Shown: in pieces, positions 5,282 to 39,729 of the stretch
How positions within the stretch are numbered: the first letter of the stretch is position 1
Layout: each line of letters opens with the position of its first letter
NCBI GenBank assembly: GCA_029262975.1
Contig: JAJCYJ010000440.1
Coordinates: forward strand, 1 to 39,983
DNA: 39,983 nucleotides
Direction of reading: 5' to 3'
Source: Saprospiraceae bacterium
Lineage (GTDB): Bacteria; Bacteroidota; Bacteroidia; Chitinophagales; Saprospiraceae
Program-made: the position numbers and the translations under genes
Notes under the pieces: generated by a model
Databases searched by the model: none
Told to the model about the DNA's origin: nothing
Seen by the model: the letters and a program-made list of their open reading frames with translations, nothing else

Positions 5282-5373
5282 TCTTCGTGTAATATTTTAA
5301 TAAGGAATGCTTAACTACACACTCAAACCTTGAAATTTCCTTGTTGCGGCCTAACCCTAAAGGGAATCAATTA

Positions 5374-5428
5374 AATTTCAAGCTTTTCATCCGCCAGCTG
5401 ACGGAAGAGGCGGAAAAAGCTTGAAATT
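5374..5428. repeat. Long interrupted palindrome between convergent genes; possible bidirectional terminator
   Basis: AATTTCAAGCTTTT (5374-5387) pairs with AAAAGCTTGAAATT (5415-5428). Inner TCCGCC (5390-5395) pairs with GGCGGA (5409-5414). That gives about 20 bp of stem. No flanking U-tract, so it is not a canonical intrinsic terminator. Confidence 0.45.
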
Positions 5429-5561
5429 GTAATCTATCACGAATGGGTGTGTAATTAACGAAATGATAAGCATCTTGCTATCAGACAGAGAACTAAAGTT
5501 TAGAAACGGTTTTCTATTCTTCAGTGCGTCTTCTTTGATCTATAAAATTAGATTCAAAATC

Positions 5562-6404: not shown

Positions 6405-6459
6405 AATTTAAATATTTGCGAAGGTAGCTCATTTGACGAAAGTCAAAATTACTGAAAAC

Positions 6460-6984
6460 TTATACCAGGTTATACTTAGAAAATAAAAATGCTTTTGTCT
6501 CTTTTTCGTCAAATGCTCCACCCAGTAATGTCTGACTGGCCAGTCCTTCCAAATAACAACTGAGGAACCTGGCTTCCTGTGCTGGTGACTTATAATTTAA
6601 TTTGGCGAAAGCCTCCGTCAACTTTTCAATCAGAGGTTTGGTCTTGTCGGGATTCATATGTTGTAATTCCCACTTCAATCTGAATTGCAAGCGCCAAAAC
6701 TCATGATGTTCTGTGGCAAGATCCAATGGAAGTTCTATTGTCTTGGCGACTACCATCATGGGATCTTTCTCCTCTATAATATTACTATAAAGTGCTTTGA
6801 ATGCTTGCTCACCTTCCTCGAAAATAGCTTTCAATAGCCCCTCTTTATTATAGAAATGTCTGAAAATTAAGCTTTCCGAGACACCAGCCTTTTGCGCAAT
6901 TTTATTGGTCGAAGTAGCAGTATATCCCTCTGTTGCAAATAACTCTAAACCAGACTTGAGAATTAGCTCTTTTTTAGTCACCAT
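6460..6984 (-). CDS. TetR/AcrR family transcriptional regulator
   Basis: N-terminal HTH (TSTNKIAQKAGVSESLIFRHFYNKEGLL). 174 aa. Divergent from the molybdo-enzyme genes. Confidence 0.9.
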   Translation of the reverse strand: MVTKKELILKSGLELFATEGYTATSTNKIAQKAGVSESLIFRHFYNKEGLLKAIFEEGEQAFKALYSNIIEEKDPMMVVAKTIELPLDLATEHHEFWRLQFRLKWELQHMNPDKTKPLIEKLTEAFAKLNYKSPAQEARFLSCYLEGLASQTLLGGAFDEKETKAFLFSKYNLV

Positions 6985-7116
6985 AAAAGTAAGTGCTCAC
7001 TCACAAATTTATATATTTAAATTATATTCGCATCAAAATGTGTAAGAGAATATGTATCTTATAGATGCTTCAGACCAGAGGCTCAATTATAATTGCTCTA
7101 TAAATAAGTTTCAACT

Positions 7117-7593
7117 ATGGCAGAATTAAAAATTAACGGCAAGTCTATCAATGTAGATGTAGAAGGAGGCATGCCGCTATTGTGGGTCTTACGGGACGAA
7201 TTAGATATGACCGGGACAAAATATGGATGTGGCGTCTCCTCTTGTGGTGCATGTACCGTTATGATCGATGGTGTTGCCACAAAGAGTTGCACTTTTCCGG
7301 TAGCCAGTGCAGCAGGAAAGGAAATCACAACTATTGAAGGAATTGCAAAGCAGGGCCAACTTACGGCAGTGCAACGTGCCTGGATTGAACATCAAGTACC
7401 TCAATGCGGCTATTGTCAGTCAGGAATGATCATGGCAGCTGAGGCTTTGTTGGATCAGAATCCAGAACCTACAGACATGGATATAGATGAAAGCATGACA
7501 AACATCTGTCGTTGTGGCACCTATCAAAGAGTGCGACAAGCAATACATTCGGCGGCCAAATTGCGCGCCAACGAAGCAGAATTATTAGGATAA
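7117..7593 (+). CDS. (2Fe-2S)-binding small subunit of a xanthine-dehydrogenase-family molybdo-enzyme (IorA-like)
   Basis: Two [2Fe-2S] cysteine groups: [11 protein letters not shown] and CGYCQSG...CRCGTY. 158 aa. Confidence 0.9.
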
Positions 7594-7620
7594 TATTCTT
7601 TAAAAAAGTAAAAGCTGAAA

Positions 7621-11244: not shown

Positions 11245-12153
11245 TTAGAGTTGTCCAAGTCTTCTAATTTGAAATACTTCATATATTAGAAATAGTATAA
11301 ATCCCCATACAATTAGAATAAGAAGACTAATAGTTAACACAAGTGAAATAGGCGCATTCGATCCGGCTGACCACAATTCTCTTTCTAAATGTATTGTTGA
11401 AGAAGGATTTGAAACACCCCAATCGGTTGTACTCGTTCCGATAAGCGTTCCGAATTCCTCATGGTCCTCAACCTTTGCATAAATCAGTACATTACCTGAA
11501 GTATCACTCCTGATATCATTGGGGAAAATAAATGAGACGATCCCATTCTCATCAGTATATTCTGATTCTGCTATAGACATTAATCCAAACAGTCTTTTTA
11601 CATAGATGCCGACTTCAACATCAACGGCTGGGATAAGCTGACCTTCAGGACCGGGCCTTTCGACTAAGAATTGAATTGACCTAATTGAGTCTTCTTCTTG
11701 TGTTGTCAATTTTATTTTTGACCTGGTAATATCAATGATTTTTGATGCATCCAGCACGTATTTATTATCTTCTATTTTAGCTAAAAATCTATAATAATTT
11801 GATGTATCAATAGCCTTGTAAAAAGTATCAGGAAGTCCGTAATTGATGGCCCCGCTTTTATCAGTGATTGCAAACCCCAAATAATCCGAATTTTGATCAT
11901 CTTCAATGAAGAAATCTACCCTGACACCACGAACACCTACATAAGACCTATCCTCTTTGCTCTTGACAGTAGTCTTTAGGCGTGGCCCATAATTATTATA
12001 ATTAAAGTAATCTAAACTAATTCTAGCTTTTTTCTTTGCCTCGTTGCTCTGATCATTTTGACATATCAAAGCTGAAGACAATAAATAAAATGCGATTACC
12101 AGGCATGTTTTAATATGATATATTTTAATTGTCCAGGGCATCAATATGTTCAT
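11245..12153 (-). CDS. Periplasmic beta-rich protein with C-terminal TM anchor, unknown function
   Basis: N-terminal signal peptide. Two segments resemble carboxypeptidase-regulatory/transthyretin-like beta-sandwich repeats (VRVDFFIED...ITDKSGAINYGLPD; VDVEVGIYV...YTDENGIVSFIFPND). C-terminal TM (ISLVLTISLLILIVWGFILFLIY). Overlaps the NrfD-like stop by about 29 nt. Confidence 0.6.
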   Translation of the reverse strand: MNILMPWTIKIYHIKTCLVIAFYLLSSALICQNDQSNEAKKKARISLDYFNYNNYGPRLKTTVKSKEDRSYVGVRGVRVDFFIEDDQNSDYLGFAITDKSGAINYGLPDTFYKAIDTSNYYRFLAKIEDNKYVLDASKIIDITRSKIKLTTQEEDSIRSIQFLVERPGPEGQLIPAVDVEVGIYVKRLFGLMSIAESEYTDENGIVSFIFPNDIRSDTSGNVLIYAKVEDHEEFGTLIGTSTTDWGVSNPSSTIHLERELWSAGSNAPISLVLTISLLILIVWGFILFLIYEVFQIRRLGQL

Positions 12154-13516
12154 TTGTATTTAGAAAAAGTTGCTGACTATCTAATCCACGGTCTTCGGCT
12201 GTTTCCACAATAGGTATCACCGGTACGATTCTAACTAATAGAGTTATTATTAATAGTGATGCAGTCAGTGTGCCTATAGTAATCATCCATTCGGGCCCTG
12301 AAGGTGCGTAATGCAGCCAGGAGTCCGGGACACGCGTGGTAGGAATAAGCGGATAACTCAACGTAGGTACTACGATCAGGTATCTTTTAAACCAAGCCCC
12401 CACTATAATCACCATTGAGACGATAAATGCAATTAGTGGTTTTCTTCCTTTATTGAACATTAATATGATAATTGGAATGAGCATCCCACCAATCTGAACC
12501 GTCCAAAAAAGAGGAGCCATATTGCCACTGAACAAGTCGTGAAGATGTTCGCTTTCATGACCTTTCATTTTGTAAGCAGGAATAAAGTATTCATTAATAT
12601 TAAAATATAAATAGATTAAAGAAAGCATTAAAAGCAGTCTGCTCATATAATCAAAATGTTTCTCAGTAAAATGATCTTTATAATTATAGATTTTTTTAAA
12701 TATGAACATGGCACAAATCACACAAGCTGCACCCACCATAAAAGCGCCTGCTACAAAATATGGTCCTACACCAGTGCTATCCCAACCAGGCCTGAAAGTA
12801 GTTGCAAAAAGCCATGACGTTACCGTGTGTATACCAAAGGCTATCGGAATAATTATAATTGCAATGATTCTTATTGCTTTAGACAATATTTTTTTCTGTG
12901 CTTCTGTGTTTTTCCAATTTATTGAAAGGACACGGTAAAGCTTTTGTTGCCATTTTGGTATGCCCTTTAATCTATCACGCATAATTGCGAAGTCAGGGAT
13001 TAATGGTAAATACAGAAAAAGGGTGCTCAAAACCAAATATGTGCTGATCACAATCACGTCCCAGATTATGGGGGATTGAATTCGTGGATGAAAGATCAGA
13101 TTGAGCATTCTGTCAGGTCGACCCATATCGATGATGATCACTATACCCGCCATGATGATGGCGCTAACCGCTATTATCTCCGAAATTCTGGTAAGTGGAG
13201 TACGCCATTCCGCTCCTGTCAATTTTAATATGGCGCTGATCAATGAGCCAACAAGACTAATAGCAACGAAGAATACAAAGTTAGATACATAGATCCCCCA
13301 GGAAGTATAATCGCTGAGACCGGTTATTGACAGGCCTTGATCTAATTGTATCAAATAAAAATACAATCCAAGAAGGCTAAATATCAGAAGCCCAAAAATC
13401 CAGATCTTTCCTAATGTTCCAAATGGCCTTGGGTATAAATCATCTAAAAGGGATGTCACTTTTTCAGATGTGTTTATAGAATATTTGAGCTTGTCTTCTG
13501 TCTGTAAATCCGTCAT
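12125..13516 (-). CDS. NrfD/PsrC-family polytopic quinone-interacting membrane subunit (long, ActC/DsrP-sized)
   Basis: About 10 hydrophobic helices in about 463 aa. Sits directly after a TAT-exported FeS subunit. I chose the ATG at 13516, which gives TAA-C-ATG coupling with the upstream stop (13518-13520). The track ORF extends to 13561. Confidence 0.85.
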   Translation of the reverse strand: MTDLQTEDKLKYSINTSEKVTSLLDDLYPRPFGTLGKIWIFGLLIFSLLGLYFYLIQLDQGLSITGLSDYTSWGIYVSNFVFFVAISLVGSLISAILKLTGAEWRTPLTRISEIIAVSAIIMAGIVIIIDMGRPDRMLNLIFHPRIQSPIIWDVIVISTYLVLSTLFLYLPLIPDFAIMRDRLKGIPKWQQKLYRVLSINWKNTEAQKKILSKAIRIIAIIIIPIAFGIHTVTSWLFATTFRPGWDSTGVGPYFVAGAFMVGAACVICAMFIFKKIYNYKDHFTEKHFDYMSRLLLMLSLIYLYFNINEYFIPAYKMKGHESEHLHDLFSGNMAPLFWTVQIGGMLIPIIILMFNKGRKPLIAFIVSMVIIVGAWFKRYLIVVPTLSYPLIPTTRVPDSWLHYAPSGPEWMITIGTLTASLLIITLLVRIVPVIPIVETAEDRGLDSQQLFLNTNEHIDALDN

Positions 13517-13517
13517 G

Positions 13518-14435
13518 TTACTTGTTTCGAGAATACTCATCATCTTCAAATGGGAAGGCACGCTGCACCGGAGGCAAGTAATATACTCGCGGCTTGGTTC
13601 CTAAGTCTTCCATATACCGATAGCCAAATCTTTCTTTTAATAAATCACTGAGTTTTACTGTCTCTGTTCCATTTGAAACGGCGTCTTCATTTTCATCCCC
13701 AAAATAGAATACACCATTAGGACAGGCGGAAACACAATGCGGCATTTCTCCTTTTCGAACCATGTCAGGGCAGAAGTCACATTTGGAAACAGTTCCTTTT
13801 TTAGGCGGACAGCTGGTCTCAGGATCATATGGCATATTAAGAACCTCCAATGGCAGTACTGGTTCACTCCAGTCAAAACTTCGCGCGGAATATGGACAAG
13901 CTACCATGCAGAATCTGCATCCTATGCATCTGTCATTATCGATTAAGACGATACCGTCTGTTCTTTTAAAAGTTGCATCGACAGGACAAACTTTTACACA
14001 AGGAGGATTATCACAATGAAAACATGTGGTGGGTTGCCAATAGGGTGAAGCCAAATCATTGTCTTGTTGCTTTACAATCTTAAGCCAATCTTTTTCAGGA
14101 GTTAAATGATGCATTTTTTCACAAGCGTCATGACACTTTCTCAGATTTTTACATTGTGCCAGATCGATAACCATTACGAATTTTCTGCCTGGTATCCCTT
14201 CCCTTACTTTGGCCGTATATGTATTTGGGATAGGTTTTAAATAGGCTTCATCAATTTCTATAATCTCTCCATCGGGAGACAATAATTTGACTTTGTTCCC
14301 ACTTTCTAGTACATCATCCCGGTGAAAAATATTATCATTTTCAGTGGGAGAGGGAAAAGCCAATCCTGCAAAAAAACTCTTTTTCAAAAAGGACCTTCGG
14401 TTATTCTCGAGGGAGGCTTCGTTATTATTTGACAT
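13518..14435 (-). CDS. TAT-exported 4Fe-4S ferredoxin-type subunit (NrfC/DmsB-like) with an N-terminal extension
   Basis: Twin-arginine signal NRRSFLKKSFFAGLAF. Cysteine groups: CKNLRKCHDAC (atypical spacing), CFHCDNPPCVKVCP, CIGCRFCMVACP and CDFC...CVSACP. Confidence 0.9.
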   Translation of the reverse strand: MSNNNEASLENNRRSFLKKSFFAGLAFPSPTENDNIFHRDDVLESGNKVKLLSPDGEIIEIDEAYLKPIPNTYTAKVREGIPGRKFVMVIDLAQCKNLRKCHDACEKMHHLTPEKDWLKIVKQQDNDLASPYWQPTTCFHCDNPPCVKVCPVDATFKRTDGIVLIDNDRCIGCRFCMVACPYSARSFDWSEPVLPLEVLNMPYDPETSCPPKKGTVSKCDFCPDMVRKGEMPHCVSACPNGVFYFGDENEDAVSNGTETVKLSDLLKERFGYRYMEDLGTKPRVYYLPPVQRAFPFEDDEYSRNK

Positions 14436-14446
14436 CTTCAGTTGAT

Positions 14447-14713
14447 CTAAGATTTATTATTCTTTTTCTTTTCTTCTTCTATCCATTCTTTGAGCCTCGA
14501 ATTAGAAACTTTTCCGCTGCACATTTTATCGATGTATTTATTATCAATATCATATAGTGTCCCATCAGCTGAAATTAAACGGGTTGTCTTCTTGTTTTCG
14601 GGATCTTTTTTCACAGATCTATTCATAATCTCTATACCAGCGATGATACCTATGCCTCCGATAATTCCTTTATCCAAAAACTTTCGCCTGGTATTTTTTT
14701 GTTCTTTATTCAT
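14447..14713 (-). CDS. Small TAT-signal protein, paralog of the N-terminal extension of the adjacent FeS subunit
   Basis: ATG at 14713 gives MNKEQKNTRRKFLDKGIIGGIGIIAG (twin-arginine signal). The RLISADGTLYDIDNKYIDKM segment mirrors KLLSPDGEIIEIDEAYLKPI in the next gene. The track ORF starts at 14764 and would overlap the upstream gene. Confidence 0.6.
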   Translation of the reverse strand: MNKEQKNTRRKFLDKGIIGGIGIIAGIEIMNRSVKKDPENKKTTRLISADGTLYDIDNKYIDKMCSGKVSNSRLKEWIEEEKKKNNKS

Positions 14714-14729
14714 TATAGTTTGATTATAA

Positions 14730-15638
14730 TTAATAAACCCACATACGGGTGATATTAAAACCAATTAGAAAATTTTCGGTAAAGTTGTCCGTCCAGTTTC
14801 TTGAATTATAAAAATTATTCTCCTGTGGTAATATGCTGTTGCTGTTGCCTATGAACACTTGAAAGGCATGAGAACTGGTACCTATCTGTATGCCAAGACT
14901 AATGTTAGGGTTAGGATTATTTCTGACATGTTTAGTGATAGGCTGATCAACATTTATAATAAAATCAAGACTTTCAGTAAGCCCTACTTGGGCACCAAAC
15001 GCAAGTGCTATGTGGTCATTTTCCCTTGTTTCGCCGATAATATTATAATGTGAGAGACTGGGGGCTACTTGAAACGAAAACCAATCATTAAATTTTCTGC
15101 CTATAATGATTTGATGAAAGTAGGAATATCTGTCTGATGTGTTATAAATGACTTCTCGGTTTTCGGCAGGTCTTGAATCCAGAACAGCGTTTCCAAAGTA
15201 AGTAACTGACAAGGGTATGCTTCCACTTCGTGTCTGCTTTAAAACTGAATACTTAGCATTAACATCAAGCATATGTTTGAACTTGGTAAGTCCAAGACCC
15301 AGGGAGAGATTATCAATCGGTGTATAACTTAATCCCATTCTGATATTAGAATTGGAATAGAATCCATATAAGTCATCATATCCCTTGTTCAAGGTGCCAA
15401 ATCTGTGCATGATATCGAATTCAAACGTTCCTTTTACAGGTACATGGACTGTCTGGTTATCAATGAGCCATACGCTTTCAAAAACAGAGGTAACCGGTCG
15501 ATCTGGAGCAGGAGCGGATTCATCTTGAGACAAGACTGGTTGTATACCTGCGAGAAGAAATATTAAGAAGAGTAGAATATTGAATTCCTGCCAATTAGAT
15601 TTAACCCAAGTCATAATTATTGCTTTAGAATCTGACAT
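14730..15638 (-). CDS. Predicted outer-membrane beta-barrel protein (DUF5777-like)
   Basis: Signal peptide, alternating-hydrophobicity strands, aromatic C-terminus (NITRMWVY). The FEFDIMHRFG motif is one I associate with the DUF5777 barrel family. Confidence 0.65.
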   Translation of the reverse strand: MSDSKAIIMTWVKSNWQEFNILLFLIFLLAGIQPVLSQDESAPAPDRPVTSVFESVWLIDNQTVHVPVKGTFEFDIMHRFGTLNKGYDDLYGFYSNSNIRMGLSYTPIDNLSLGLGLTKFKHMLDVNAKYSVLKQTRSGSIPLSVTYFGNAVLDSRPAENREVIYNTSDRYSYFHQIIIGRKFNDWFSFQVAPSLSHYNIIGETRENDHIALAFGAQVGLTESLDFIINVDQPITKHVRNNPNPNISLGIQIGTSSHAFQVFIGNSNSILPQENNFYNSRNWTDNFTENFLIGFNITRMWVY

Positions 15639-15697
15639 TGTTTTTTCATTTTATAATTAGAAAGTCATTTTATTTTACATAATTCCGAATGTCCTAT

Positions 15698-16087
15698 TTA
15701 ATTATTAGGAGCTCCATTTTGTATCCAGGCTAAAATTAATTGCCGGTCTAATTCAGGTATTTGTGGTCCACCTGGAGGCATCGGATCCCCTCCTGGTAAA
15801 AATTCTACAGCTTTGTAAACACTACTATTTTGAGGTTGTGTAGTGTTCACAAATCCACTTTTTAACTCTGACCAGGCTCTCTCACCGAGCAGGTTTGGAG
15901 CCGTCGTTCCATCATGACAATTCGAAGTGCTACAGCTTTTTGCCATGATAGGAAGAATATGTGTGGAGAATGAAACGTCTTCAGGGTTTATAGGTTGTAA
16001 TGGAGGTGGGCTGTCGTAGTAGCAAGATTGAAAAATGGAAACTAATACTACACAGAGATAAACCATTATAATTTTCCAGTTATTCAT
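15698..16087 (-). CDS. Small lipoprotein with a PSCyt1-like (planctomycete cytochrome c-like) domain carrying CX4CH
   Basis: Lipobox IFQSC. CSTSNCH at codons 52-58 (nt 15914-15934). The rest, ...SSVYKAVEFLPGGDPMPPGG...LILAWIQNGAP, resembles the PSCyt1 pattern CxxCH...MP...WI..GA. Confidence 0.6.
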   Translation of the reverse strand: MNNWKIIMVYLCVVLVSIFQSCYYDSPPPLQPINPEDVSFSTHILPIMAKSCSTSNCHDGTTAPNLLGERAWSELKSGFVNTTQPQNSSVYKAVEFLPGGDPMPPGGPQIPELDRQLILAWIQNGAPNN

Positions 16088-16131
16088 AATTGGATATTGT
16101 TATTGTTTCTTAATGAATGTCCAGCCTGTAT

Positions 16132-16815
16132 TTATATTGATTTTTTAAATTGTCCACTGGCAATCACCTTTACATTATCAGCTATGTTTCCTGACTGAAT
16201 TCCAAATACTGTCTTTGCGGCGAATTCAAATTCAAGAATAAATCCTGCAACATTTAAAGGCGCATTTCTAACCCCGGAAGCTTCATCAAAGAATGTAGTT
16301 CCGACATAATTAAGTTTGCCTAATATAGGTGCTTCGACATTGTGGAAAGACATTACTCCTTCTACATCAAATCCTCCCCGATTGTCATGCGATATCTTTG
16401 TGCTTTGGAAGCTTGCCTCATCACTTGCAGCATCACCATCGACAATTCCAAATGTACCTAACAGGCATCCGGCGTCTCTGCCTGGTTCTCCAGTGTTAAC
16501 AGTCGACAATGTTACTTTGCCTGTTATTAGACTATTAGTGGGTGTCTTCTGATCAAAATCTATAGACATTTCGAAATCATTAAAACGTCCGGTAAGCAAT
16601 GCCGAAGAACCCAGGTAGGCTGTTTCCCACCTTACACTTGAATGTGTTTTATCAAAAGCATACCCGTCAGATACTTCGACAATATCATCTCCATATTCAA
16701 ATGTTGATTCTGAAATCTGACTTAAGGGGTCGTCATCATGTGTGCAAGATGATATTTCTGATAACATAAAAAGAATAGATGCACACATGCAGAAAACCAT
16801 GAATGAATTTTTCAT
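16132..16815 (-). CDS. YceI-like domain lipoprotein
   Basis: Lipobox (EISSC). HSSVRWETAYLG...LTGRFNDFEMSIDFD...KVTLSTVNTGEPGRD matches the YceI pattern (S.v.F...G.F..f...i.fd...Sv.Tg...RD). Confidence 0.8.
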   Translation of the reverse strand: MKNSFMVFCMCASILFMLSEISSCTHDDDPLSQISESTFEYGDDIVEVSDGYAFDKTHSSVRWETAYLGSSALLTGRFNDFEMSIDFDQKTPTNSLITGKVTLSTVNTGEPGRDAGCLLGTFGIVDGDAASDEASFQSTKISHDNRGGFDVEGVMSFHNVEAPILGKLNYVGTTFFDEASGVRNAPLNVAGFILEFEFAAKTVFGIQSGNIADNVKVIASGQFKKSI

Positions 16816-17600: not shown

Positions 17601-18350
17601 TTATTCGACTGTCATAATCAAACCATATATCTGAGCCATAATTCTATCTCGATCCTTTAAAGAAGGCTCAATATCCGGAGTCACGAGATCATCAGACCAC
17701 CTGGGTATTACAGCTTCGCTATATGTATCAAAATGGTCGACAGTGATAGCGTTGAAAGGAATGTCGGAGCCGGTCGGGGTTACGACTGTAGCAAGATTCC
17801 AACTTACAAAAGATGTTTTACCCTCTATAATCGCTTTGTTAATAAAAGGCTGCCAGGTTTCTTGTTCAAACTTCAGAAAGTTATCCATATTCGAAACGTT
17901 GGCATAATTCATTTTGGCATATCTTCCGTTACCCACACCTGCCGAAGCCTGTAGCTCAACTACAACCTGATGAATTGTCCGACCAAGTGTTGTTGTCTCC
18001 ATATCCTGAATCCGTATGTTTCGAAAAACTGAGGAAACATCCCAAATATCTTCGTCTAAACCATATTTGTCCTTGTAGACATTGACAAAAACAAAGTTGT
18101 GTGCATCTGCATTCAGGTCATAGCCTCCAATGCGTTGCCATAATTCCCATCTAAGCATTTTACCCTCATCTATTGCTTTCTTGGCGACTTGAGACCAGTA
18201 TGTCGTCTCCCGGTGAATGAAGTCTGCAATATTTTGTTGTGGAACTGCCCTATACTGTAATACGACTACCTGTGCTTCCAGACTGATAGTCAAGAACAGA
18301 CAAAAAGTCCCTATGCTAATTAGTTTTTTAAGTAAGTTCGTCATCTTCAT
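17601..18350 (-). CDS. Secreted hypothetical protein
   Basis: 249-aa ORF with signal peptide (LISIGTFCLFLTISLEAQ). No recognised domain. It has its own terminator. Confidence 0.6.
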   Translation of the reverse strand: MKMTNLLKKLISIGTFCLFLTISLEAQVVVLQYRAVPQQNIADFIHRETTYWSQVAKKAIDEGKMLRWELWQRIGGYDLNADAHNFVFVNVYKDKYGLDEDIWDVSSVFRNIRIQDMETTTLGRTIHQVVVELQASAGVGNGRYAKMNYANVSNMDNFLKFEQETWQPFINKAIIEGKTSFVSWNLATVVTPTGSDIPFNAITVDHFDTYSEAVIPRWSDDLVTPDIEPSLKDRDRIMAQIYGLIMTVE

Positions 18351-18723: not shown

Positions 18724-20277
18724 TCAGTCTTTGTGCTTAATTATCCTTTCGGCAGCCAAAAATCCAGGTGCACAGGTGATCCCCCCGCCCGGATGAGCTC
18801 CACTTCCAGAAAGGTAGAGTCCCTTAATAGGAGTGTCATACCTGGCACAATAGGGGATAGGCCGGGTGATTAACTGATCTACGGCATGTTCACCATGAAA
18901 AATGTGGCCATTTGTAAGATTAAATTGATCTTCAAAGTCTACAGGTGAAAGTACTTCACATCCGACAATCTCATCTCTGGAATTCTCTATATAATCCAGA
19001 AGCATATCTTCTACATTATCTTTTAATCTATCCTTTTGTTCTTTATTCCATCCAGCGTCAAAATGATAAGGCGCAAAATGAACAAGTATGGACAGTACGC
19101 TATGACCATCAGGGGCCACCGTAGGATCTGAGACAGATGGTACATGAATATCTAAGATGGGGTGATCAGAAAATTTCCGATATTTAACAGAGTCAAAGGC
19201 CTTTTCCATTTCATCGATAGAATTTCCTGTTCGCGCATATTCTATAGTATCATCAGATTTAAATTTAAACTTCACTTTATTACTAAGGGCGATATTAACC
19301 TTTGCGGTAGTCCCCCGGGACCTATAATTCTGTATACTTCTTTCTAATGGATAATCGATTACATTGGGAGCCAACAAATCCAGGAATGTGTGCTGAGGTG
19401 TGCAAGAAGATGCCACGATTGGTGAATTTTCTACAGCACCGTCTTTTAGTGTTATCCCGGTTACCATTCCATGTTTATCAACATTTATGCTACTTACCTC
19501 TGACTGCAGTTTTATAACCACACCGGCTGATATAGCTGCTTTTTCGAGTGCGTTCACGAGGGCTTGAGGTCCTCCTACTATGTGCTCTCTGGCACATACT
19601 TCCCACATCAATAAATTCAACGTAGTATATGAAGACCATGGTCCGGTATATGAAGCATAAATTGAAGGTCCCAAGAGTCCGGCTTTAAGGAATTCGGTTT
19701 CGAATCTTTCGTTGAGAAAATCAGCTACGGACATAGGCCCTACTTTGAGCAATTCTGTCATCGTTTTTTTCCCTAACTTTTTCAAAGCAAGGCCTTTCTT
19801 ACCAAGGGCAAAAAGCTCTTTTGTGCCAAATTGAATGAGATCCGGTGGAATCTCGTTTAATAGCGGGAATAAAAATTTACCTATTTCATCTATAAAAATC
19901 CGATAGTCGCGATATGCTTCTCCATCATCTTTTGATATTTTAGTTATTTCTTCAATGGCCTTATTTCTATCAGATGGAAGAAATATTCCCCGGCCATCTT
20001 TGGCCAATATAGCCGCATCCGGACGTGCATTTTTAATTTTTAACCCAAACTGTTCCAAACCTAATTGCTTTAATACAGAGGTCCTGACACCACTTGTGTC
20101 ATGGACTAGTCCGGTAGTTCTGTATCCAGGAATAAATTCATGACCTGAGGCGATACCTCCCAGGAATTTATTCTTTTCGAGCAAAAGAACTTTCATTCCT
20201 TTTTTAGCGAGAATCGTGGCAGTAGTCAGACCATTATGTCCACCACCGATAACAATGATATCATAACTCTTATTCAT
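18724..20277 (-). CDS. FAD-dependent oxidoreductase, phytoene-desaturase (CrtI)/PYROXD2 superfamily, divergent paralog
   Basis: N-terminal dinucleotide fold YDIIVIGGGHNGLTTATILAKKGMKVLLLEKNKFLGG. C-terminal GLYLSGSGAHPGGGI motif. 5 nt downstream of its paralog. Confidence 0.9.
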   Translation of the reverse strand: MNKSYDIIVIGGGHNGLTTATILAKKGMKVLLLEKNKFLGGIASGHEFIPGYRTTGLVHDTSGVRTSVLKQLGLEQFGLKIKNARPDAAILAKDGRGIFLPSDRNKAIEEITKISKDDGEAYRDYRIFIDEIGKFLFPLLNEIPPDLIQFGTKELFALGKKGLALKKLGKKTMTELLKVGPMSVADFLNERFETEFLKAGLLGPSIYASYTGPWSSYTTLNLLMWEVCAREHIVGGPQALVNALEKAAISAGVVIKLQSEVSSINVDKHGMVTGITLKDGAVENSPIVASSCTPQHTFLDLLAPNVIDYPLERSIQNYRSRGTTAKVNIALSNKVKFKFKSDDTIEYARTGNSIDEMEKAFDSVKYRKFSDHPILDIHVPSVSDPTVAPDGHSVLSILVHFAPYHFDAGWNKEQKDRLKDNVEDMLLDYIENSRDEIVGCEVLSPVDFEDQFNLTNGHIFHGEHAVDQLITRPIPYCARYDTPIKGLYLSGSGAHPGGGITCAPGFLAAERIIKHKD

Positions 20278-20282
20278 AATGA

Positions 20283-21872
20283 TTATATAGATCTAGATTG
20301 TAAAATTGTCTTGGCACATAGTTCTCCACTTGCGCCCATAATACCTCCGCCCGGATGCGTACCGGATCCACACATATACAGGCTTGGTACCGAAGTCTTG
20401 TACTTCGCATATCCTGAAATCGGTCGCTGAAAGAGCAACTGCTCAAGACTTAACTCTCCCTGGAAAATATTGCCTTCCGTCAGACCCATTTGTTTTTCGA
20501 TATCCCATGGTGTAAGCACCTGACGATAAAGGATCATATCTTTTAATCCCGGGATATATTCAGCCATAGTATCCACTACAGCATCACCAAACGCCTCCCT
20601 GTATTTGGGCCAATTTTCAGCTCCTTCTTTAATGTTATAGGGAGCATATTGTACAAAACATGAAAGTATATGCTTCCCTGGAGGAGCTACTGTTGGGTCT
20701 GTGAGCGATGGAATTACCGCATTGATATACGGTCGTTTGCTGAATGATCCATATTTGGCTTCATCAAATGCCTTTTCCAGGTAATCAATACTAGGTGCAA
20801 TGGCAATATCACCCCGAAGATGATCGCCTACCCCCGGCCGACATGAAAATTCCGGGACCCTGTCCAGCGCCAGGTTCACCTTTCCTGAACTTCCCCGAAA
20901 TTTGAATCTTTTTACTTGTTTTACTATTTCATCATCCAAATTCTTTTCACCGACCAGATTCAAATACGTCTGGTTTGGATCAAGATTTGAAATGATAGTT
21001 TTAGCGGTATATTCATCACCGTTCTCAAGGACTACACCATAAGCCTGGCCATTTTTAATCAAAACTTTATGTACAGGGGCATTCGTTTTAATTTCTGCTC
21101 CATATGATCTTGCTGCATTGGCGCAGGCCATACTGATACCACCAGTTCCACCTTTTGAGAAACCCCATGATCTGAAAGCACCGTCCAACTGACCCATATA
21201 GTGATGGAGCAGGACATAAGCAGTTCCAGGAGAACGAACGCCCTGGAAAGTCCCAATGATTCCACTTACTGACATGGGCGCCTTCAAGACTTCAGATTCA
21301 AACCATTGATCGAGAAAATCAAGGGCACTCATCGTGACGAGTTTAATATTCATGTGAAGCAGGTCAGGACCTAAGTCCTTAAATGCTTTACCCAACCGGA
21401 GAAGATTAGCTAATTCTTTGATTTTCAAGGAGTTAATATCTGGCGCAGGGTGATCAATAACCTCTTTGGCCAATTTGCCCATATGTGTCATGATTCTACT
21501 GAATTCCGGGTATACCTCAGCATCTTTTTGGCTAAAACGGGATATTTCTCTGCGTGACTTATGAGCATCTCCCCATCGTGCCAATGAATCACCATTAGGC
21601 AATGGTGAAAGTGAGCAATCCATAGGGATTACTTCATATCCATGTTTTGCAAGTTCGAGTTCCCTGATGATGTGAGGGCGAAATAAACTGACGACATATG
21701 AAGCGACAGAAAATGTAAATCCCGGATATAATTCTTCAGATACGGCGGCACCACCCAGTACATATCTTTTTTCCAGTACCAGCACTTTCTTGCCTGCTTT
21801 TGCCAAATATGCGGCGCAAATCAGCCCGTTATGGCCACCACCTACTACTATTGCATCATAATTTCCTTTCAT
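20283..21872 (-). CDS. FAD-dependent oxidoreductase, PYROXD2-like
   Basis: YDAIVVGGGHNGLICAAYLAKAGKKVLVLEKRYVLGGAAVSEELYPGFTFSVASY, LDQWFESEVLKAP, YVLLHHYMG and LYMCGSGTHPGGGIMG align closely with human PYROXD2 as I recall it. Confidence 0.9.
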   Translation of the reverse strand: MKGNYDAIVVGGGHNGLICAAYLAKAGKKVLVLEKRYVLGGAAVSEELYPGFTFSVASYVVSLFRPHIIRELELAKHGYEVIPMDCSLSPLPNGDSLARWGDAHKSRREISRFSQKDAEVYPEFSRIMTHMGKLAKEVIDHPAPDINSLKIKELANLLRLGKAFKDLGPDLLHMNIKLVTMSALDFLDQWFESEVLKAPMSVSGIIGTFQGVRSPGTAYVLLHHYMGQLDGAFRSWGFSKGGTGGISMACANAARSYGAEIKTNAPVHKVLIKNGQAYGVVLENGDEYTAKTIISNLDPNQTYLNLVGEKNLDDEIVKQVKRFKFRGSSGKVNLALDRVPEFSCRPGVGDHLRGDIAIAPSIDYLEKAFDEAKYGSFSKRPYINAVIPSLTDPTVAPPGKHILSCFVQYAPYNIKEGAENWPKYREAFGDAVVDTMAEYIPGLKDMILYRQVLTPWDIEKQMGLTEGNIFQGELSLEQLLFQRPISGYAKYKTSVPSLYMCGSGTHPGGGIMGASGELCAKTILQSRSI

Positions 21873-23092
21873 TGTTTTTTGTTTTCGACTGAAGGAGTGG
21901 ATTTTTTACGTTCTGGATTAAAGAATTGAGGACTGGTTAATCTGGCCGACACGGTATGACGGATATGCTCGACAGTACATTCTATCTGTACAGTTGCACC
22001 GGGTTTGTCAAACTTTTTTTCGATTGTAGCAAGCGCAATATTTTTCTTTAATATGGGAGACCATGTGCCACTTGTGGCATATCCGATTTGTGTCTTTTTG
22101 CTTTTGTCTTTGTAGATAGGGATTGAATCTCGCCATGCCATACTTCCTACTTCGGGAGGGAGACCATATGAATTGTATAGCTTTTCGATTTCAGTCCAAT
22201 CAATATCGAGACCGACAATAGTCCATGAAGAACCACTTTCCTTTTCTTTTTTTAGTGCCTTCTGTCCATTGAAAGGTGCTCGTTCCAAATTAACAGTCCA
22301 CCCGAGCGAAATCTCATAGGGCGAGGATTTTCTATCATCGATCAATGCATGCAGTGCATTATAGTAATCAACGTCTTTTAATATTAATCCGGCTTCCACA
22401 CGTGTGACATCGAGGGCATCCAAACCAGCTGGCCGGATATTATAACGACCGCCTTCAGCCATGAGTAGATCGTAGAGCTTTATAGCATTGGCATTGTCTA
22501 CCCACAATTCATAACCCAGATCACCTGTATATCCTGTCCGTGAAATGTTGATTTCAAAACCTGCAACCCTTGCTCTAGTGGTGCCAAAGAATTTCAGCCT
22601 ATCCATGTCAGCTGAAGTGATTTGTTTGATGATATCCCGTGATGTTGGCCCTTGTAAAGCTAGTCCTGCTATCTGAGTCGAAATATCTTCTAGTTGAACA
22701 TCATAACCTCGTTTGAACCTGCTAAACCATGAAAAGCATGGGTCTGCTGATGTGACAAAGAATTCCTCATCTCCCCGCCGCATGACAGTACCGTCATCTA
22801 CGACTTTGCCATCTGCAGTACACCAACAACAATAAGTCACTCGTCCTACCTTCAGCTTGTTTATATTTTTGACCATTATTCGGGATAGGAAAGAAGCAGC
22901 ATCTTTTCCTTTGACTGAATACTTATATAATGGAGTAATATCAAGCAATCCAGCAGAATTTCTAAAAGCGAAGTACTCCATATCATGATGTACAAGATAG
23001 GAGCTGACGGCATAGTAGCCGGCCCATTCCTTGTAGTTCATGCTTTCGCAGAGTTGACTTGTGCGGGGATGAAAAGGTGATTTAACAGGCAT
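21869..23092 (-). CDS. GcvT-family aminomethyltransferase (folate-binding) protein
   Basis: About 407 aa from the ATG at 23092 (MPVKSPFHPRTSQL...), with a GcvT-like fold pattern (GLLDITPLYKY, ALQGPTSRDI, TGYTGDLGYELW, FNGQKAL). Its stop overlaps the next start by 4 nt (ATGA). The track ORF starts at 23149. Confidence 0.85.
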   Translation of the reverse strand: MPVKSPFHPRTSQLCESMNYKEWAGYYAVSSYLVHHDMEYFAFRNSAGLLDITPLYKYSVKGKDAASFLSRIMVKNINKLKVGRVTYCCWCTADGKVVDDGTVMRRGDEEFFVTSADPCFSWFSRFKRGYDVQLEDISTQIAGLALQGPTSRDIIKQITSADMDRLKFFGTTRARVAGFEINISRTGYTGDLGYELWVDNANAIKLYDLLMAEGGRYNIRPAGLDALDVTRVEAGLILKDVDYYNALHALIDDRKSSPYEISLGWTVNLERAPFNGQKALKKEKESGSSWTIVGLDIDWTEIEKLYNSYGLPPEVGSMAWRDSIPIYKDKSKKTQIGYATSGTWSPILKKNIALATIEKKFDKPGATVQIECTVEHIRHTVSARLTSPQFFNPERKKSTPSVENKKQ

Positions 23093-23328
23093 TTTTATCG
23101 ATGAATTGTGAGTTGGTAAAGTTTGAAGTAGAAGATCTGATCTCGACAAATGAGAAGGCTTGAGGTAAGCAAGCTTATGGGGCCATTTAGAGCCCGGGAA
23201 TAAAGGTATAAGGAGGGAATTTTAAGATCATGGACAATTATAAGGATAAATAGTCGATTGATGGCCAGTGGCGTTTATATTTTATTGTGCGCCAATTCGT
23301 GTGCTAATGAACATTCTCATAACTCATA

Positions 23329-23372
23329 TTGTCCGTCAGGTGAATTGTCAAATATGAGTTATATCGGGCTTC
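23329..23372. repeat. 11-bp-stem inverted repeat in an ORF-free region
   Basis: ATAACTCATAT (23329-23339) pairs perfectly with ATATGAGTTAT (23362-23372) across a 22-nt loop. Confidence 0.5.
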
Positions 23373-23940
23373 CCAAGGCTTTTTTAAAAAAGTGGGGCAG
23401 GGATTAATTGAGATGCTCTGTTCGTCTGCTGTTTTCTATCGAAACCTCAGAGCTTTTCACTGGAATGTTTTTTTTGAAAGATGAACAAAAATTCACTAAT
23501 TCCTCCTAATAGGTTGGGTACAAAAAACTTGCATAGGACTAAAATTAAATTCAACATTAACATTCGAAGGATGATTACTTTATAATAATGGGATATGGAC
23601 AGATTGAGACTATTTTAAATAAACTTATCGTACTTAACATCCCTTTACAAGTTCTTCCATATTTATGCACCAATACGAACCAGGAGACAATTCACATAAT
23701 TGTCTTTCCATTCTATTTATTTGATCTCATCAAATAAGGCGTATGCGTTTGCCATTGGAAGAATTTTTCTTTTCCTTTACGGAAACCTAAGGAGGGCAAA
23801 ATAATACCCTCAAACATTTAAACGACCTTTCTTCTCACTCATGGTTGTCATCTCGAACTAATATATTTCGACATTTAGGGTGTTAGAAATTTGTTTTTTG
23901 AACACTTATGATATTGAAAAAATGAGGCATTTATGCTTTG

Positions 23941-24549
23941 TTACGCCGCATGGCGCTCCAGGATAATTTTACATCTTGTTGGCGATGTAACCTTGACAGA
24001 ATGGCTGATATGCAAGGGTATTTCTAAAAAGTCTCCTGTCTGAAGGGCATGTACTTTACTGCCTATGGTAATCTCGCAAGAACCTTCTACAATTAGAAAT
24101 TTTTCTATTTCATCCGTGTGAACTTCAGGGGGGGCGCCTTCTTTCAGCCATATAATCATTGTAGTTTTCTCTTCATTTGAACCAATAATTCTGCCACACA
24201 TTGAATCGTACTCATCGGGCTCTTGTAGATCAGTTCTGTCTAGCCATACACTGAATTCTGATAATTTAGAATTACTACTCAGGGTAGGAGGGATAACTGG
24301 AATTTCGCCATTTTGGATTCTGTCGGTATAATTTATTCCAGCTAACAGCATCGGTTTGGCGGTAGGATCAACTTCTGAAGCATTGGCAAAAGCATATGAC
24401 TCCAGGGCCATTTCTATTTCTGTTATTTCCTCAAGGATTTCAGGATAATTGGCTGCAGCCTCTTCCACCTCTAATCTCTCCTTTTCGGAAAGATCTCCAA
24501 TAACATAGAGTTCTAATATGCCGGAATTCTTTATCTCCATTAAATCCAT
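23941..24549 (-). CDS. Soluble anti-sigma factor with C-terminal ChrR-like cupin domain
   Basis: The N-terminal helical region resembles anti-sigma domains (ELYVIGDLSEKERLEVEEAAANYPE) but has no His/Cys zinc ligands. C-terminal cupin (FLIVEGSCEITIGSKVHALQTGDFLEIPLHISH). No TM segment. An alternative ATG at 24540 forms TAATG with the sigma stop. Confidence 0.75.
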   Translation of the reverse strand: MDLMEIKNSGILELYVIGDLSEKERLEVEEAAANYPEILEEITEIEMALESYAFANASEVDPTAKPMLLAGINYTDRIQNGEIPVIPPTLSSNSKLSEFSVWLDRTDLQEPDEYDSMCGRIIGSNEEKTTMIIWLKEGAPPEVHTDEIEKFLIVEGSCEITIGSKVHALQTGDFLEIPLHISHSVKVTSPTRCKIILERHAA

Positions 24550-25121
24550 AATATAAGGCTTATTAAGAGGTAAAGAAAAAGAGCACTTGTGAAACTCGTT
24601 TTTTCGTTTTGAAGTGATTCTCTAAGTATGCTTATGGATTTTCTTAAACGAGATTTGATGGTTCCTATGGGTAGATTTAAAAGATCAGATGCCTCTTTAT
24701 GGGTATACCCTTTGAGGTATATACAATCGAGAACAACTTTATATTTCTCGTCCAGAGGTTTGGTAAGACTTATAACGTCAAGCTTGCTATGATTATCTGT
24801 AATAGAGCTGTCATGATGTGCTACATTTAATGTGGTAGTATTTGACAAATGTTCAAATCGTTTTAATCTTTTTTGATCTATAGCGCAATTTCGTGCGATT
24901 CGTGCCATCCAAGTAAACAAAGTCGATTTGGTACTATCATATCTTCCAAAATTAGTCCAAATTTTCATGAATGTCTCCTGAAGAATTTCTTCTGCAATCG
25001 CTTCAGAGCCTACGATCCTTATAATAATTCCTTTGAGCGCACCACCATAATGATCATATAGAAAAGTAAGCCCTTTCTCATCTTTTCGAATCATGTAATC
25101 AACTGCAGCTGTGAGCTTCAT
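24540..25121 (-). CDS. ECF (group IV) RNA polymerase sigma-70 factor
   Basis: Region 2 (EEILQETFMKIW...FTWMARIARNCAIDQKR) and region 4 HTH (YTHKEASDLLNLPIGTIKSRLRKS). Unusual hydrophobic C-terminal tail. Confidence 0.9.
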   Translation of the reverse strand: MKLTAAVDYMIRKDEKGLTFLYDHYGGALKGIIIRIVGSEAIAEEILQETFMKIWTNFGRYDSTKSTLFTWMARIARNCAIDQKRLKRFEHLSNTTTLNVAHHDSSITDNHSKLDVISLTKPLDEKYKVVLDCIYLKGYTHKEASDLLNLPIGTIKSRLRKSISILRESLQNEKTSFTSALFLYLLISLILWI

Positions 25122-25314
25122 AACGGTATCAAAGATCTGAATTCTTTTAAGATTATCAAATGATTAGGAATAAAAGCTTTGTTCGGTAAATTTGGAGTAC
25201 GTCTTCTCTTTTTGAGTCAGAATTTTGAATACGCTGATATTAATATCGTGTACCATAGATCCTCTGCTATTATATTTCCCGGTTTAAGCCAATAATAGTT
25301 TATATGCTCCATTA

Positions 25315-25764
25315 TTAATTGTGACTCAACCTGTTCAAAAATCGATCGAATAAATAAAACATCCATAATGAAACTGATCCTAAGAGGAGTTCATTTTTTA
25401 TTATAGTAACTCCTGCATATTCATCAGGGATAGATGGATCATTTACAAAAATGTACAATCCTATTATAACCAATATTACAGTTACTACTATGATCAGTAC
25501 ATGCCTTGTAAACCTTGTCCAAAAAATATATGAGCTGTCTAATTGATTTTCAAAACTAATTCTATCCATTATAGTATGCGCAAACCTCATAGACGGTTCT
25601 TCCTTCTCAATTGTATGCAAATCATTATGGATGAGGCCAATTAATTGAAACTCGTACATGCAGAGATTACAGGATTCTAGATGAGTCCGAAGCAAAGTGC
25701 GTTCTTCTTCACTTATGTCTTCAGAATATAATTTCCATAGTTTTTCTTCCTCAATGTGGTTCAT
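25315..25764 (-). CDS. Membrane anti-sigma factor with zf-HC2 motif
   Basis: HLESCNLC (H-x3-C-x2-C) near the N-terminus. TM helices (HVLIIVVTVILVIIGLYIF; LLLGSVSLWMFYLF). 10 nt downstream of an ECF sigma gene. Confidence 0.75.
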   Translation of the reverse strand: MNHIEEEKLWKLYSEDISEEERTLLRTHLESCNLCMYEFQLIGLIHNDLHTIEKEEPSMRFAHTIMDRISFENQLDSSYIFWTRFTRHVLIIVVTVILVIIGLYIFVNDPSIPDEYAGVTIIKNELLLGSVSLWMFYLFDRFLNRLSHN

Positions 25765-25774
25765 GATCGTTTTT

Positions 25775-26335
25775 TCATTCTTTTAATTCGCGCTTTAGAG
25801 TTGGAGAGATGATAGATCTTAGATTATTCCTGGCCCTGAATAGTTTAACTTTTATGTTACTATTAGTCATTCCAGTTATTTCCGAAATCTCATTAATACT
25901 TAAATCTTCCAGATAATATAAGTTTATTATTATGCCCTGATCTTTATCTAGTTTATCAATACAAAATTTTAATATTTCTTTGCGATTAACAATGTTAGTC
26001 GCGTCATACGGAGAATAGTGTTCAATCAATAATTCTTCATGACTGCTATCTATAGATGTCTTATTCATCTGTTTTATTCGCTTACGGTCGATAGACGTGG
26101 TATAAGCAATTCGCATAACCCACCCCTTAAATTTAGCATAGTCTTTTAGTTTATTTAACTCCTTGAAACATTTGATAAAAACGTCTTGGGCCACTTCTTC
26201 TGCTTCCTCTCTATTTTTTAATATCCTAAGGCAAAAAGTAAAGACAGAAGATTGATATTTTCGAATTAGCTGAGCATAGGAATCAGAATCTCTGTTTTTG
26301 ATTATTTTAGTAATTATATCCTGATCGTCAATCAT
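25775..26335 (-). CDS. ECF RNA polymerase sigma-70 factor
   Basis: Region 2 (EEVAQDVFIKCF...FKGWVMRIAYTTSIDRKR) and region 4 (LSINEISEITGMTNSNIKVKLFRAR). Confidence 0.9.
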   Translation of the reverse strand: MIDDQDIITKIIKNRDSDSYAQLIRKYQSSVFTFCLRILKNREEAEEVAQDVFIKCFKELNKLKDYAKFKGWVMRIAYTTSIDRKRIKQMNKTSIDSSHEELLIEHYSPYDATNIVNRKEILKFCIDKLDKDQGIIINLYYLEDLSINEISEITGMTNSNIKVKLFRARNNLRSIISPTLKRELKE

Positions 26336-32635: not shown

Positions 32636-32840
32636 GATGAGGTCATTTTGTCCAAAGGTGATCTTTAAAAAGAAGGGATTACCCACACATGTGTGTGGGA
32701 TTAGTGGAATAGTGCTACATCCTCAATGAGCTTCTATGGGGCGAGAAGAGAAGGATTAATAAGATTTTAATAGATATTAGAAACGGGGGTTAAGAGATTT
32801 TGGGGATAGATATTTCTACTTTCGTAAAATATTCAATAGT

Positions 32841-38288: not shown

Positions 38289-38297
38289 ATTGGGTTT

Positions 38298-39674: not shown

Positions 39675-39729
39675 GTATTGCTTGCTTCTAAAGAGACTAT
39701 ATATGATTGTTCCGTCACAATATAGTCCT

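Follow-up and report, generated by a model that had tools for sequence, protein, structure and literature searches.

What would a folate-binding protein of the GcvT family and two flavoproteins related to human PYROXD2 do together when their genes form a single operon? This question is raised by three minus-strand genes in a 39,983-nucleotide stretch of DNA, hereafter the window, from a Saprospiraceae bacterium of the Bacteroidota (assembly GCA_029262975.1, contig JAJCYJ010000440.1, positions 1 to 39,983). In order of transcription, the genes encode a GcvT-like protein and two flavin adenine dinucleotide (FAD) flavoproteins designated flavoA and flavoB; the three are referred to as the trio. 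An original prediction, made from the sequence without database searches, held that the trio specifies an N-methyl-amine demethylase coupled to folate and split over separate polypeptides. Each computational check supported this reading: the families turned out to be linked in other genomes and the flavoproteins scored below the curated cut-offs for carotenoid enzymes. We assign a probability of roughly 0.6 to the proposal that the trio acts as an oxidative N-demethylase, split over several polypeptides and coupled to tetrahydrofolate, whose substrate would be a secondary or tertiary N-methyl amine of the amino-acid type.

A coupled trio conserved across phyla

In the interval 18724-23092, a listing of open reading frames (ORFs) gave exactly three long ORFs on the minus strand (Table 1), and no other ORF of at least 100 amino acids overlaps them on either strand. 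The three genes are translationally coupled, and the ORF listing and a direct reading of the junctions agree with the arrangement first described. The TGA stop of the GcvT-like gene overlaps the ATG of flavoA in the sequence ATGA at 21869-21872 ('...CAATGAAAGG...'), and flavoA is separated from flavoB by a gap of 5 nucleotides (TCATT) at 20278-20282 ('...ATATAA tcatt ATGAATAAG...'). The first ATG of the GcvT-like gene lies at 23092, and its ORF stays open back to a TTG at 23149, giving a maximal frame of 426 amino acids (21869-23149). The long ORFs and the very strong profile matches described below show that the trio is no chance pattern, and because non-coding DNA flanks it on both sides, over about 850 bp upstream and over about 370 bp downstream, it looks like a self-contained operon. 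Its G+C content, 39-43% against 35-44% across the window, is unremarkable.

The linkage of the three genes was examined from both sides. A search of a genome collection with flavoA returned at least 586 relatives, and the best 80 loci were surveyed by clustering all of their ORFs, after discarding the shadow ORFs that overlap trio genes and that are numerous in high-GC loci. These 80 loci span Bacteroidota, Acidobacteriota, Myxococcota, Planctomycetota, Elusimicrobiota, Eisenibacteriota and others, and also include bins labelled Chlamydiota and bins labelled Bifidobacteriaceae. A second, paralogous flavoprotein follows flavoA in 79 of them, the exception being cut by a contig end, and a GcvT-like gene is present in 69. 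This gene is co-directional and immediately upstream, as in the window, in loci L001-L017, which include Bacteroidota, Myxococcota, Elusimicrobiota and Planctomycetota; it is divergently transcribed in most Acidobacteriota. In the reverse search, which started from the GcvT-like protein, flavoA lies downstream in 17/17 loci and is followed by flavoB in 16, the remaining contig ending inside flavoA. Whichever side the search starts from, linkage of the trio is thus strongly conserved, in at least eight lineages of phylum rank; its absence would have spoken against the original prediction. By its overlapping codons in the window and its recurrence elsewhere (69/80 and 17/17 loci), a GcvT-fold folate module is coupled to a flavoprotein, the arrangement that characterises folate-coupled demethylases. 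Across phyla, flavoA is the most constrained member (60-89% identity), followed by the GcvT-like protein (44-78%) and the second flavoprotein (34-62%). In a close relative (L088, Saprospiraceae chromosome OZ252053.1, 7191-12686), insertions of about 2 kb between the GcvT-like gene and flavoA and of about 1.9 kb between flavoA and flavoB break the otherwise tight operon.

The first gene was initially taken to encode a folate-binding protein of the GcvT family, and both Pfam domains of the GcvT/aminomethyltransferase superfamily were found above their gathering scores: GCV_T (PF01571; E 8e-60, 202.6 bits against a cut-off of 25.6) and GCV_T_C (PF08669; E 4e-13, 49.4 bits against 25.9). The curated cut-offs for T proteins of the glycine cleavage system are missed (PRK00389, 222.8 bits against 300; TIGR00528, 178.3 against 235.85; PRK13579, 141 against 459), and by these thresholds the protein is not a bona fide T protein; no GcvH or GcvP domain was found among the scanned neighbours in the window or the recurrent neighbours in the 80 loci. 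Among NCBIfam models the highest score goes to the C-terminal half of the trimethylamine N-oxide (TMAO) demethylase Tdm, at 247 bits for an equivalog cut-off of 1100, followed by GcvT (223), SoxA (171), DmdA (116) and LigM (78). Among PDB entries, Bacillus subtilis GcvT (1yx2) and TMAO demethylase (9q5a, E 5e-43) tie at about E 1e-43, and the next matches are the sarcosine oxidase alpha subunit, dimethylglycine dehydrogenase (DMGDH) and dimethylglycine oxidase (DMGO). The motifs VDDG, SRTGYTGxxGYE and RxEAG, which line the folate site of T proteins, are conserved in the alignments, where VDDG, SRTGYTGDLGYE and RVEAG of the GcvT-like protein pair with their counterparts in 1yx2, 1woo and 9q5a. 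In these sequence comparisons the protein is closest to the members that capture a one-carbon unit (T protein, the C-terminal domain of TMAO demethylase, SoxA and DMGDH) and not to the methyl-transferring DmdA and LigM. We propose that it would serve as the tetrahydrofolate-dependent acceptor of a one-carbon unit.

FlavoA and flavoB both match the Pfam families Amino_oxidase and NAD_binding_8 as well as profiles of the CrtI superfamily, and align with each other over their full length at 34% identity (E 2e-93); their description as two paralogous FAD oxidoreductases stands. The family of flavoA is large: an exhaustive search recovered 2,637 representative clusters with E values of 1e-30 or lower. 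By name, several of the top representatives proved to be animal PYROXD2 (oyster, mayfly and flatworm), and a choanoflagellate relative was among them as well. The PYROXD2 labels used here are NCBI and UniRef names, and the oyster protein XP_011443058 (P0273) served as the animal reference. FlavoA is 42% identical to it over the full length (residues 4-524 on 42-578; 396 bits, E 1e-136), compared with 81 bits for CrtI (4dgk), a similarity clearly above that to other characterised families. All three flavoA blocks that had been quoted as PYROXD2-like align with the oyster protein: LDQWFESEVLKAP with LNKWFESEPLKAT, YVLLHHYMG with YVLLHHVMG, and CGSGTHPGGGIMG with GGSGAHPGGGVLG. Moreover, 104 alignment columns are invariant across 77 flavoA orthologues and six eukaryotic PYROXD2s. 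Judged by these alignments, flavoA belongs with animal PYROXD2. Strict orthology is not established, because the NC10-type bacterial proteins are closer to protist PYROXD2-like proteins (54% identity for P0401) than flavoA is to animal PYROXD2 (42-44%).

FlavoB is more diverged, with 31% identity to oyster PYROXD2. Of the 104 columns invariant in flavoA and PYROXD2, proteins of its type retain 63; they lose P215, G216, Y219, H223, H224, M226, G227 and W236, and with them the block PG..YVLLHHxMG..W common to flavoA and animal PYROXD2. The second flavoprotein occurs as two sequence types in different phyla; complete FAD-binding motifs are kept by flavoA and flavoB, and both of these types retain the FAD scaffold and lack the block. 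Because the block is lost and two types exist, the second flavoprotein would be a partner subunit or an enzyme with another specificity. FlavoA is proposed as the catalytic amine-oxidising subunit, and flavoB as its partner subunit or as a second demethylase with a different specificity.

Could the two flavoproteins instead be carotenoid enzymes? Both score well below every curated cut-off for carotenoid desaturases, isomerases and ketolases: 130.5 (flavoA) and 114.0 bits (flavoB) against 238.1 for crtI_fam (TIGR02734), 318.2 and 218.6 against 1000 for CrtO, and 106.9 against 586.9 for carotenoid isomerase. Oyster PYROXD2 has the same sub-threshold profile as flavoA. No carotenoid biosynthesis gene (crtB, crtE, crtY and similar) recurs in about 100 loci or occurs in the window. 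The flavoproteins share with CrtI, CrtD and CrtO the superfamily, the fold, the N-terminal dinucleotide-binding motif and the C-terminal GSGxHPGGG motif, but the identity in structural alignment is only 14-19%. In an AlphaFold2 (AF2) model of flavoA (pLDDT 88), the nearest folds are CrtD and CrtI and the next are flavin amine oxidases (nicotine oxidoreductase, 6-hydroxynicotine oxidase, monoamine oxidase and putrescine oxidase). At such low identity, and with both classes among the top matches, fold comparison does not separate desaturase from amine oxidase; the modelled fold allows C-N oxidation without proving it. By curated thresholds, the members of the trio are not bona fide GcvT, CrtI, CrtO or Tdm.

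Recurrent neighbours, fusion partners and human genetics

The original prediction had pointed to the neighbourhood as a source of substrate hints, and two recurrent genes provide them. A Rieske oxygenase alpha subunit of about 383 amino acids is encoded in 33 of the 80 loci, as well as in 6 of the 15 new loci of the reverse search. Its gene is the fourth of the operon in several Bacteroidota; the usual place in Acidobacteriota is next to the divergent GcvT-like gene or on the downstream side of the second flavoprotein. The best NCBIfam match of this protein is GbcA, the glycine betaine monooxygenase (201 bits, below the equivalog cut-off of 670). Its five best PDB matches are headed by 3n0q, an uncharacterised putative dioxygenase, and comprise CntA (carnitine monooxygenase) twice, the 3vca group, which we take to be the proline-betaine demethylase Stc2, and 'monooxygenase; demethylase'. 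The closest characterised relatives, GbcAB (glycine betaine), Stc2 (proline betaine) and CntAB (carnitine), act on quaternary ammonium compounds, and the Rieske enzyme of the 33 loci is placed to take the first methyl off a quaternary amine, in the manner of GbcA and Stc2. These pathways differ from the present cluster in that the downstream demethylations are carried out by DgcAB, Sox or Stc3/4-type enzymes, not by PYROXD2-like flavoproteins.

The second recurrent neighbour is an amino-acid permease of the APC family, found in 32 of the 80 loci. Two kinds of pyridoxal phosphate (PLP) enzyme genes also occur beside the cluster in Acidobacteriota and may be clues to the demethylated product. 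A threonine-aldolase-like gene follows the second flavoprotein at a short distance in nine Pyrinomonadaceae-type loci (L021, L025, L048, L050, L066, L069 and L074-L076), and a gene for a D-serine-dehydratase or 3-hydroxy-D-aspartate-aldolase-like enzyme lies a few kb downstream in seven other loci (L017, L018, L023, L035, L041, L067 and L070). In NC10-type loci (L082-L086, about 4850-8662), a lone PYROXD2-like gene is divergent from an amino-acid permease and an S-adenosylmethionine (SAM) methyltransferase, a pairing that suggests methylation and demethylation acting on an amino acid.

In protists, a module associated with formaldehyde has also become part of the PYROXD2 family by gene fusion. 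The protein P0153 carries a GFA domain (PF04828, glutathione-dependent formaldehyde-activating enzyme) at its N-terminus, fused to a PYROXD2-like body; one ORF without interruption encodes it, on a contig that looks eukaryotic. A database search found the same architecture in at least 21 distinct protist protein clusters, one of them represented by a Perkinsus olseni protein that NCBI names PYROXD2. The flavoprotein family has thus been joined at least twice independently to a module linked with one-carbon or formaldehyde metabolism, GcvT-like in bacteria and GFA in protists. Other fusions of protist PYROXD2 (P0393 and P0358) involve an amino-acid-kinase domain (PF00696), in a 1077-amino acid protein of Perkinsus olseni, and an EF-hand (PF13499), in an 813-amino acid protein.

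PYROXD2 itself is a conserved mitochondrial flavoprotein and an orphan enzyme. The animal protein resembles flavoA in its identity, its 104 shared invariant positions and its sub-threshold carotenoid profile, and differs from the trio in being encoded by a single gene, with a mitochondrial-type N-terminal extension and no GcvT or paralogous partner. No reaction for PYROXD2, including a demethylase or formaldehyde-forming activity, was found in the literature searched, where most subscription journals fall outside coverage. Human genetics points to N-methylated compounds. The PYROXD2 missense single nucleotide polymorphism rs2147896 explains 50% of the variance of plasma N6-methyllysine, 48% of that of N6,N6-dimethyllysine and 21% of that of N-methylpipecolate, and the associations of the locus extend to trimethyllysine and N2-acetylated methyl-lysines (PMC8109053). 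A 2026 study again links the locus to N2-acetyl-N6,N6-dimethyllysine, and earlier nuclear magnetic resonance (NMR) studies associated it with urinary trimethylamine and plasma dimethylamine. The association with N-methylated amine levels, which the original prediction had named, proved correct (PMC8109053, PMC13352909, PMC3169529). In addition, a report describes biallelic PYROXD2 variants in a severe mitochondrial disorder of infancy (PMC8777681).

A predicted split demethylase and its alternatives

In the proposed mechanism, flavoA, the PYROXD2 equivalent, would use FAD, probably together with flavoB, to oxidise an N-CH3 bond to an iminium ion. The separate GcvT-like protein would bind tetrahydrofolate and trap the one-carbon unit as 5,10-methylene-tetrahydrofolate, with no release of free formaldehyde. 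Flavin amine oxidases require the lone pair of the nitrogen and therefore oxidise secondary and tertiary, not quaternary, N-methyl amines, which would explain the presence of a Rieske gene beside the flavoproteins. In many other genomes, the Rieske oxygenase would strip the first methyl from a quaternary N-trimethyl group and an amino-acid permease is added; Rieske enzyme, permease and trio together would constitute a complete route from betaine to amino acid. Lineages with the trio only, that of the window included, would use substrates that are already partly methylated. For this model we infer the chemistry, the folate coupling, the complex of flavoA with flavoB, the substrate and the electron acceptor. 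An amino-acid-type substrate is favoured by the permease, the NC10 context and the human associations. By analogy with the metabolites associated with human PYROXD2, N-epsilon-methylated lysines are the leading candidates; dimethylglycine or sarcosine and N-methylated cyclic amino acids are possible alternatives.

The same logic is found in DMGO, DMGDH, SARDH and SoxABDG, where oxidation of the N-methyl group by a flavin is paired with a GcvT-fold module that binds tetrahydrofolate and captures the one-carbon unit, and the folate domains of SoxA, DMGDH and DMGO align with the GcvT-like protein. These enzymes are built on a DAO-family scaffold, whereas the flavoproteins of the trio have a full-length fold of the CrtI/PYROXD2 (amine-oxidase-like) type and match the DAO Pfam family only in the N-terminal 40 residues, which hold the dinucleotide-binding motif. 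The folate domain is fused in the known enzymes but a separate polypeptide, accompanied by two paralogous flavoproteins, in the trio. The trio therefore resembles folate-linked amine oxidases and dehydrogenases in its predicted function and stands outside that group by scaffold, separate folate protein and number of flavoproteins. Tdm provides a second comparison, since no NCBIfam model matches the GcvT-like protein better than the C-terminal GcvT-like domain of Tdm, which also shares first place among the PDB matches. This domain is held to capture formaldehyde with tetrahydrofolate. Tdm differs in that it is no flavoenzyme and possesses a catalytic N-terminal domain (DUF1989 type) which is absent from the GcvT-like protein, whose score lies far below the Tdm cut-off. 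No earlier description of the cluster was found in the literature searched.

A narrower form of the model concerns lysine. To our knowledge, no gene has been assigned to epsilon-alkyllysinase activity on the free amino acid. This oxidative N6-methyl-lysine demethylating activity was described from rat kidney in 1963-64, and a review equates it with LSD1. As a tentative proposal, which we consider possible, the PYROXD2 family, flavoA included, would be the demethylating oxidase of free N-epsilon-methyl-lysine, that is epsilon-alkyllysinase, and the bacterial cluster would convert trimethyllysine or another amino-acid betaine to its parent amino acid. The Rieske oxygenase would take the first methyl, a heteromeric PYROXD2-like flavoprotein the next two, and the stand-alone GcvT protein would channel the carbon to the folate pool.

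Among the alternatives, the one that survives best is a variant of the folate-coupled model and does not contradict it: flavoA and flavoB would form no heteromer and would act as independent enzymes on successive methyl groups, from tertiary to secondary to primary amine, with one shared folate-binding protein. Both keep complete FAD-binding motifs, the enzyme pair for dimethylglycine and sarcosine is an established precedent, and with the Rieske enzyme there would be three oxidoreductases for three methyl groups. We nevertheless consider it unlikely, as flavoB lacks the block invariant in flavoA and PYROXD2, the second flavoprotein is of two types in different phyla, and the tight coupling and the adjacency in 79/80 loci fit subunits at least equally well.

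Less probable again is that the GcvT-like protein itself is the demethylase, transferring a methyl group to folate in the manner of DmdA or LigM, while the flavoproteins would later oxidise the demethylated product, for example from amine to imine or by deamination. DmdA and LigM are known to demethylate without a flavoprotein, both give sub-threshold matches (116 and 78 bits), and from linkage alone a coupled reaction looks the same as consecutive steps. The members that capture one-carbon units score far higher, however (247 bits for the TMAO demethylase domain, 223 for GcvT and 171 for SoxA), the protist GFA fusion ties the flavoprotein itself to the handling of formaldehyde, and animal PYROXD2, which has no GcvT partner, is yet associated with N-methyl-lysine levels.

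It is very improbable that the one-carbon or aminomethyl unit comes from a C-N bond other than N-methyl (N-carboxymethyl, opine-type or glycine-derived), the trio being a variant of glycine cleavage that lacks the H and P proteins. True T proteins are nearly as similar to the GcvT-like protein as demethylase domains are, and the aldolase-like PLP genes beside the cluster in 9 and 7 Acidobacteriota loci would yield glycine, but neither gcvH nor gcvP occurs among the neighbours examined, and N-methyl groups in particular are indicated by the Rieske neighbour and by the metabolites associated with PYROXD2 in humans.

Finally, the flavoproteins can hardly be carotenoid or isoprenoid desaturases or ketolases of the CrtI or CrtO-like kind, lying beside a GcvT-like gene without functional meaning, for although CrtO gives the best profile, CrtD and CrtI are the closest solved folds and databases call the relatives 'phytoene dehydrogenase-like', all carotenoid family scores fall far under their cut-offs, no carotenoid biosynthesis gene recurs in about 100 loci, the recurrent partners are instead the GcvT-like protein, a quaternary-amine-type Rieske oxygenase, an amino-acid permease and the protist GFA domain, the GcvT-like linkage holds across phyla and in both orientations, and animals make no carotenoids yet retain PYROXD2.

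Several points weigh against the folate-coupled demethylase. The nearest characterised relatives of the flavoproteins by profile are carotenoid enzymes, CrtO having the best NCBIfam score (318 bits), and those nearest to flavoA by fold are CrtD and CrtI; the chemistry of every family member is likewise inferred. Folate coupling is not obligatory for the family, because eukaryotic and NC10 PYROXD2-like proteins have no GcvT partner, and no GcvT-like gene lies within the fetched flanks in 11 of the 80 loci. Folate-cycle genes (folD, purU and glyA) are not recurrent among the neighbours of the 80 loci. The lineage of the window has the core trio only: neither a Rieske oxygenase nor a dedicated permease lies next to the trio or elsewhere in the window, and the only weak permease match in the window is a cation-chloride cotransporter. 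The catalytic role of GFA domains in formaldehyde activation has been questioned. In humans, HPS1 adjoins PYROXD2, and the two genes could not be separated in one study of the urinary trimethylamine signal, for which its cell-line expression data favoured HPS1 (PMC9286311).

The surroundings of the operon and the meaning of the trio

The coordinates of the trio and of other features of the window are collected in Table 1. The leader upstream of the operon contains no ORF of at least 100 amino acids and no Rfam match, either at the gathering threshold or at E up to 1, so that no riboswitch or regulatory RNA was recognised in it; promoter-like and terminator-like matches are no commoner there than in shuffled sequence. 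Just upstream of it lie two tandem pairs of an extracytoplasmic function (ECF) sigma factor and a putative anti-sigma factor. These pairs, the 249-amino acid secreted protein, YceI, the cytochrome c and the DUF5777 protein were considered as partners of the trio and rejected, as they have no counterpart in about 100 related loci, and the same holds for the other neighbours of the trio in the window. The respiratory or redox-looking block appears unrelated to the trio. The cation-chloride cotransporter (CCC) is split by a single in-frame stop codon: its transmembrane part (AA_permease) ends in '...HKQERS*', and two CCC C-terminal domains resume three codons later in the same frame. The split could be a pseudogene, a sequencing error or natural.

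Table 1. Features of the trio and its surroundings in the window
Feature	Position	Strand	Remarks
GcvT-like folate-binding protein	21869-23092	(-)	407 aa from ATG at 23092
flavoA, PYROXD2-like FAD flavoprotein	20283-21872	(-)	529 aa
flavoB, diverged flavoA paralogue	18724-20277	(-)	517 aa
Leader/promoter region, non-coding	23093-23940	(-)	about 850 bp upstream of the operon; unusually long
ECF sigma/anti-sigma pair 1	24540-25121 with 23941-24549	(-)	anti-sigma candidate with C-terminal cupin domain
ECF sigma/anti-sigma pair 2	25775-26335 with 25315-25764	(-)	
Both ECF sigma/anti-sigma pairs	23941-26335	(-)	tandem
249-aa protein	17601-18350	(-)	signal-peptide-like N-terminus; no Pfam match
Respiratory/redox-looking block	11245-16815	(-)	NrfD-like membrane protein, 4Fe-4S dicluster, DUF5777 beta-barrel, weak cytochrome c match, YceI
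898-aa ORF	29990-32686	(-)	no Pfam match
Prokaryotic cation-chloride cotransporter, split	37494-39743	(-)	transmembrane part 38298-39743; C-terminal domains 37494-38288

The PYROXD2 locus carries some of the strongest metabolite associations known in humans, with N6-methyl- and dimethyl-lysine and N-methylpipecolate. The operon, its extension by Rieske and permease genes and the GFA fusions of protists point to one testable class of reaction, oxidative N-demethylation with capture of the one-carbon unit. If this is true, a function would be assigned to an orphan human enzyme, and the old epsilon-alkyllysinase activity might be traced to its gene. It would also mean that N-methylated amino acids or betaines are recycled by widespread bacteria of soil and water (Acidobacteriota, Bacteroidota, Myxococcota and others), on a flavoprotein scaffold that had not been linked to folate chemistry before. 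Should the proposal on epsilon-alkyllysinase hold, folate-coupled demethylation would have a new scaffold, a reaction would be assigned to a gene known from human disease and as a metabolite quantitative trait locus, and a previously unknown bacterial pathway would be revealed.

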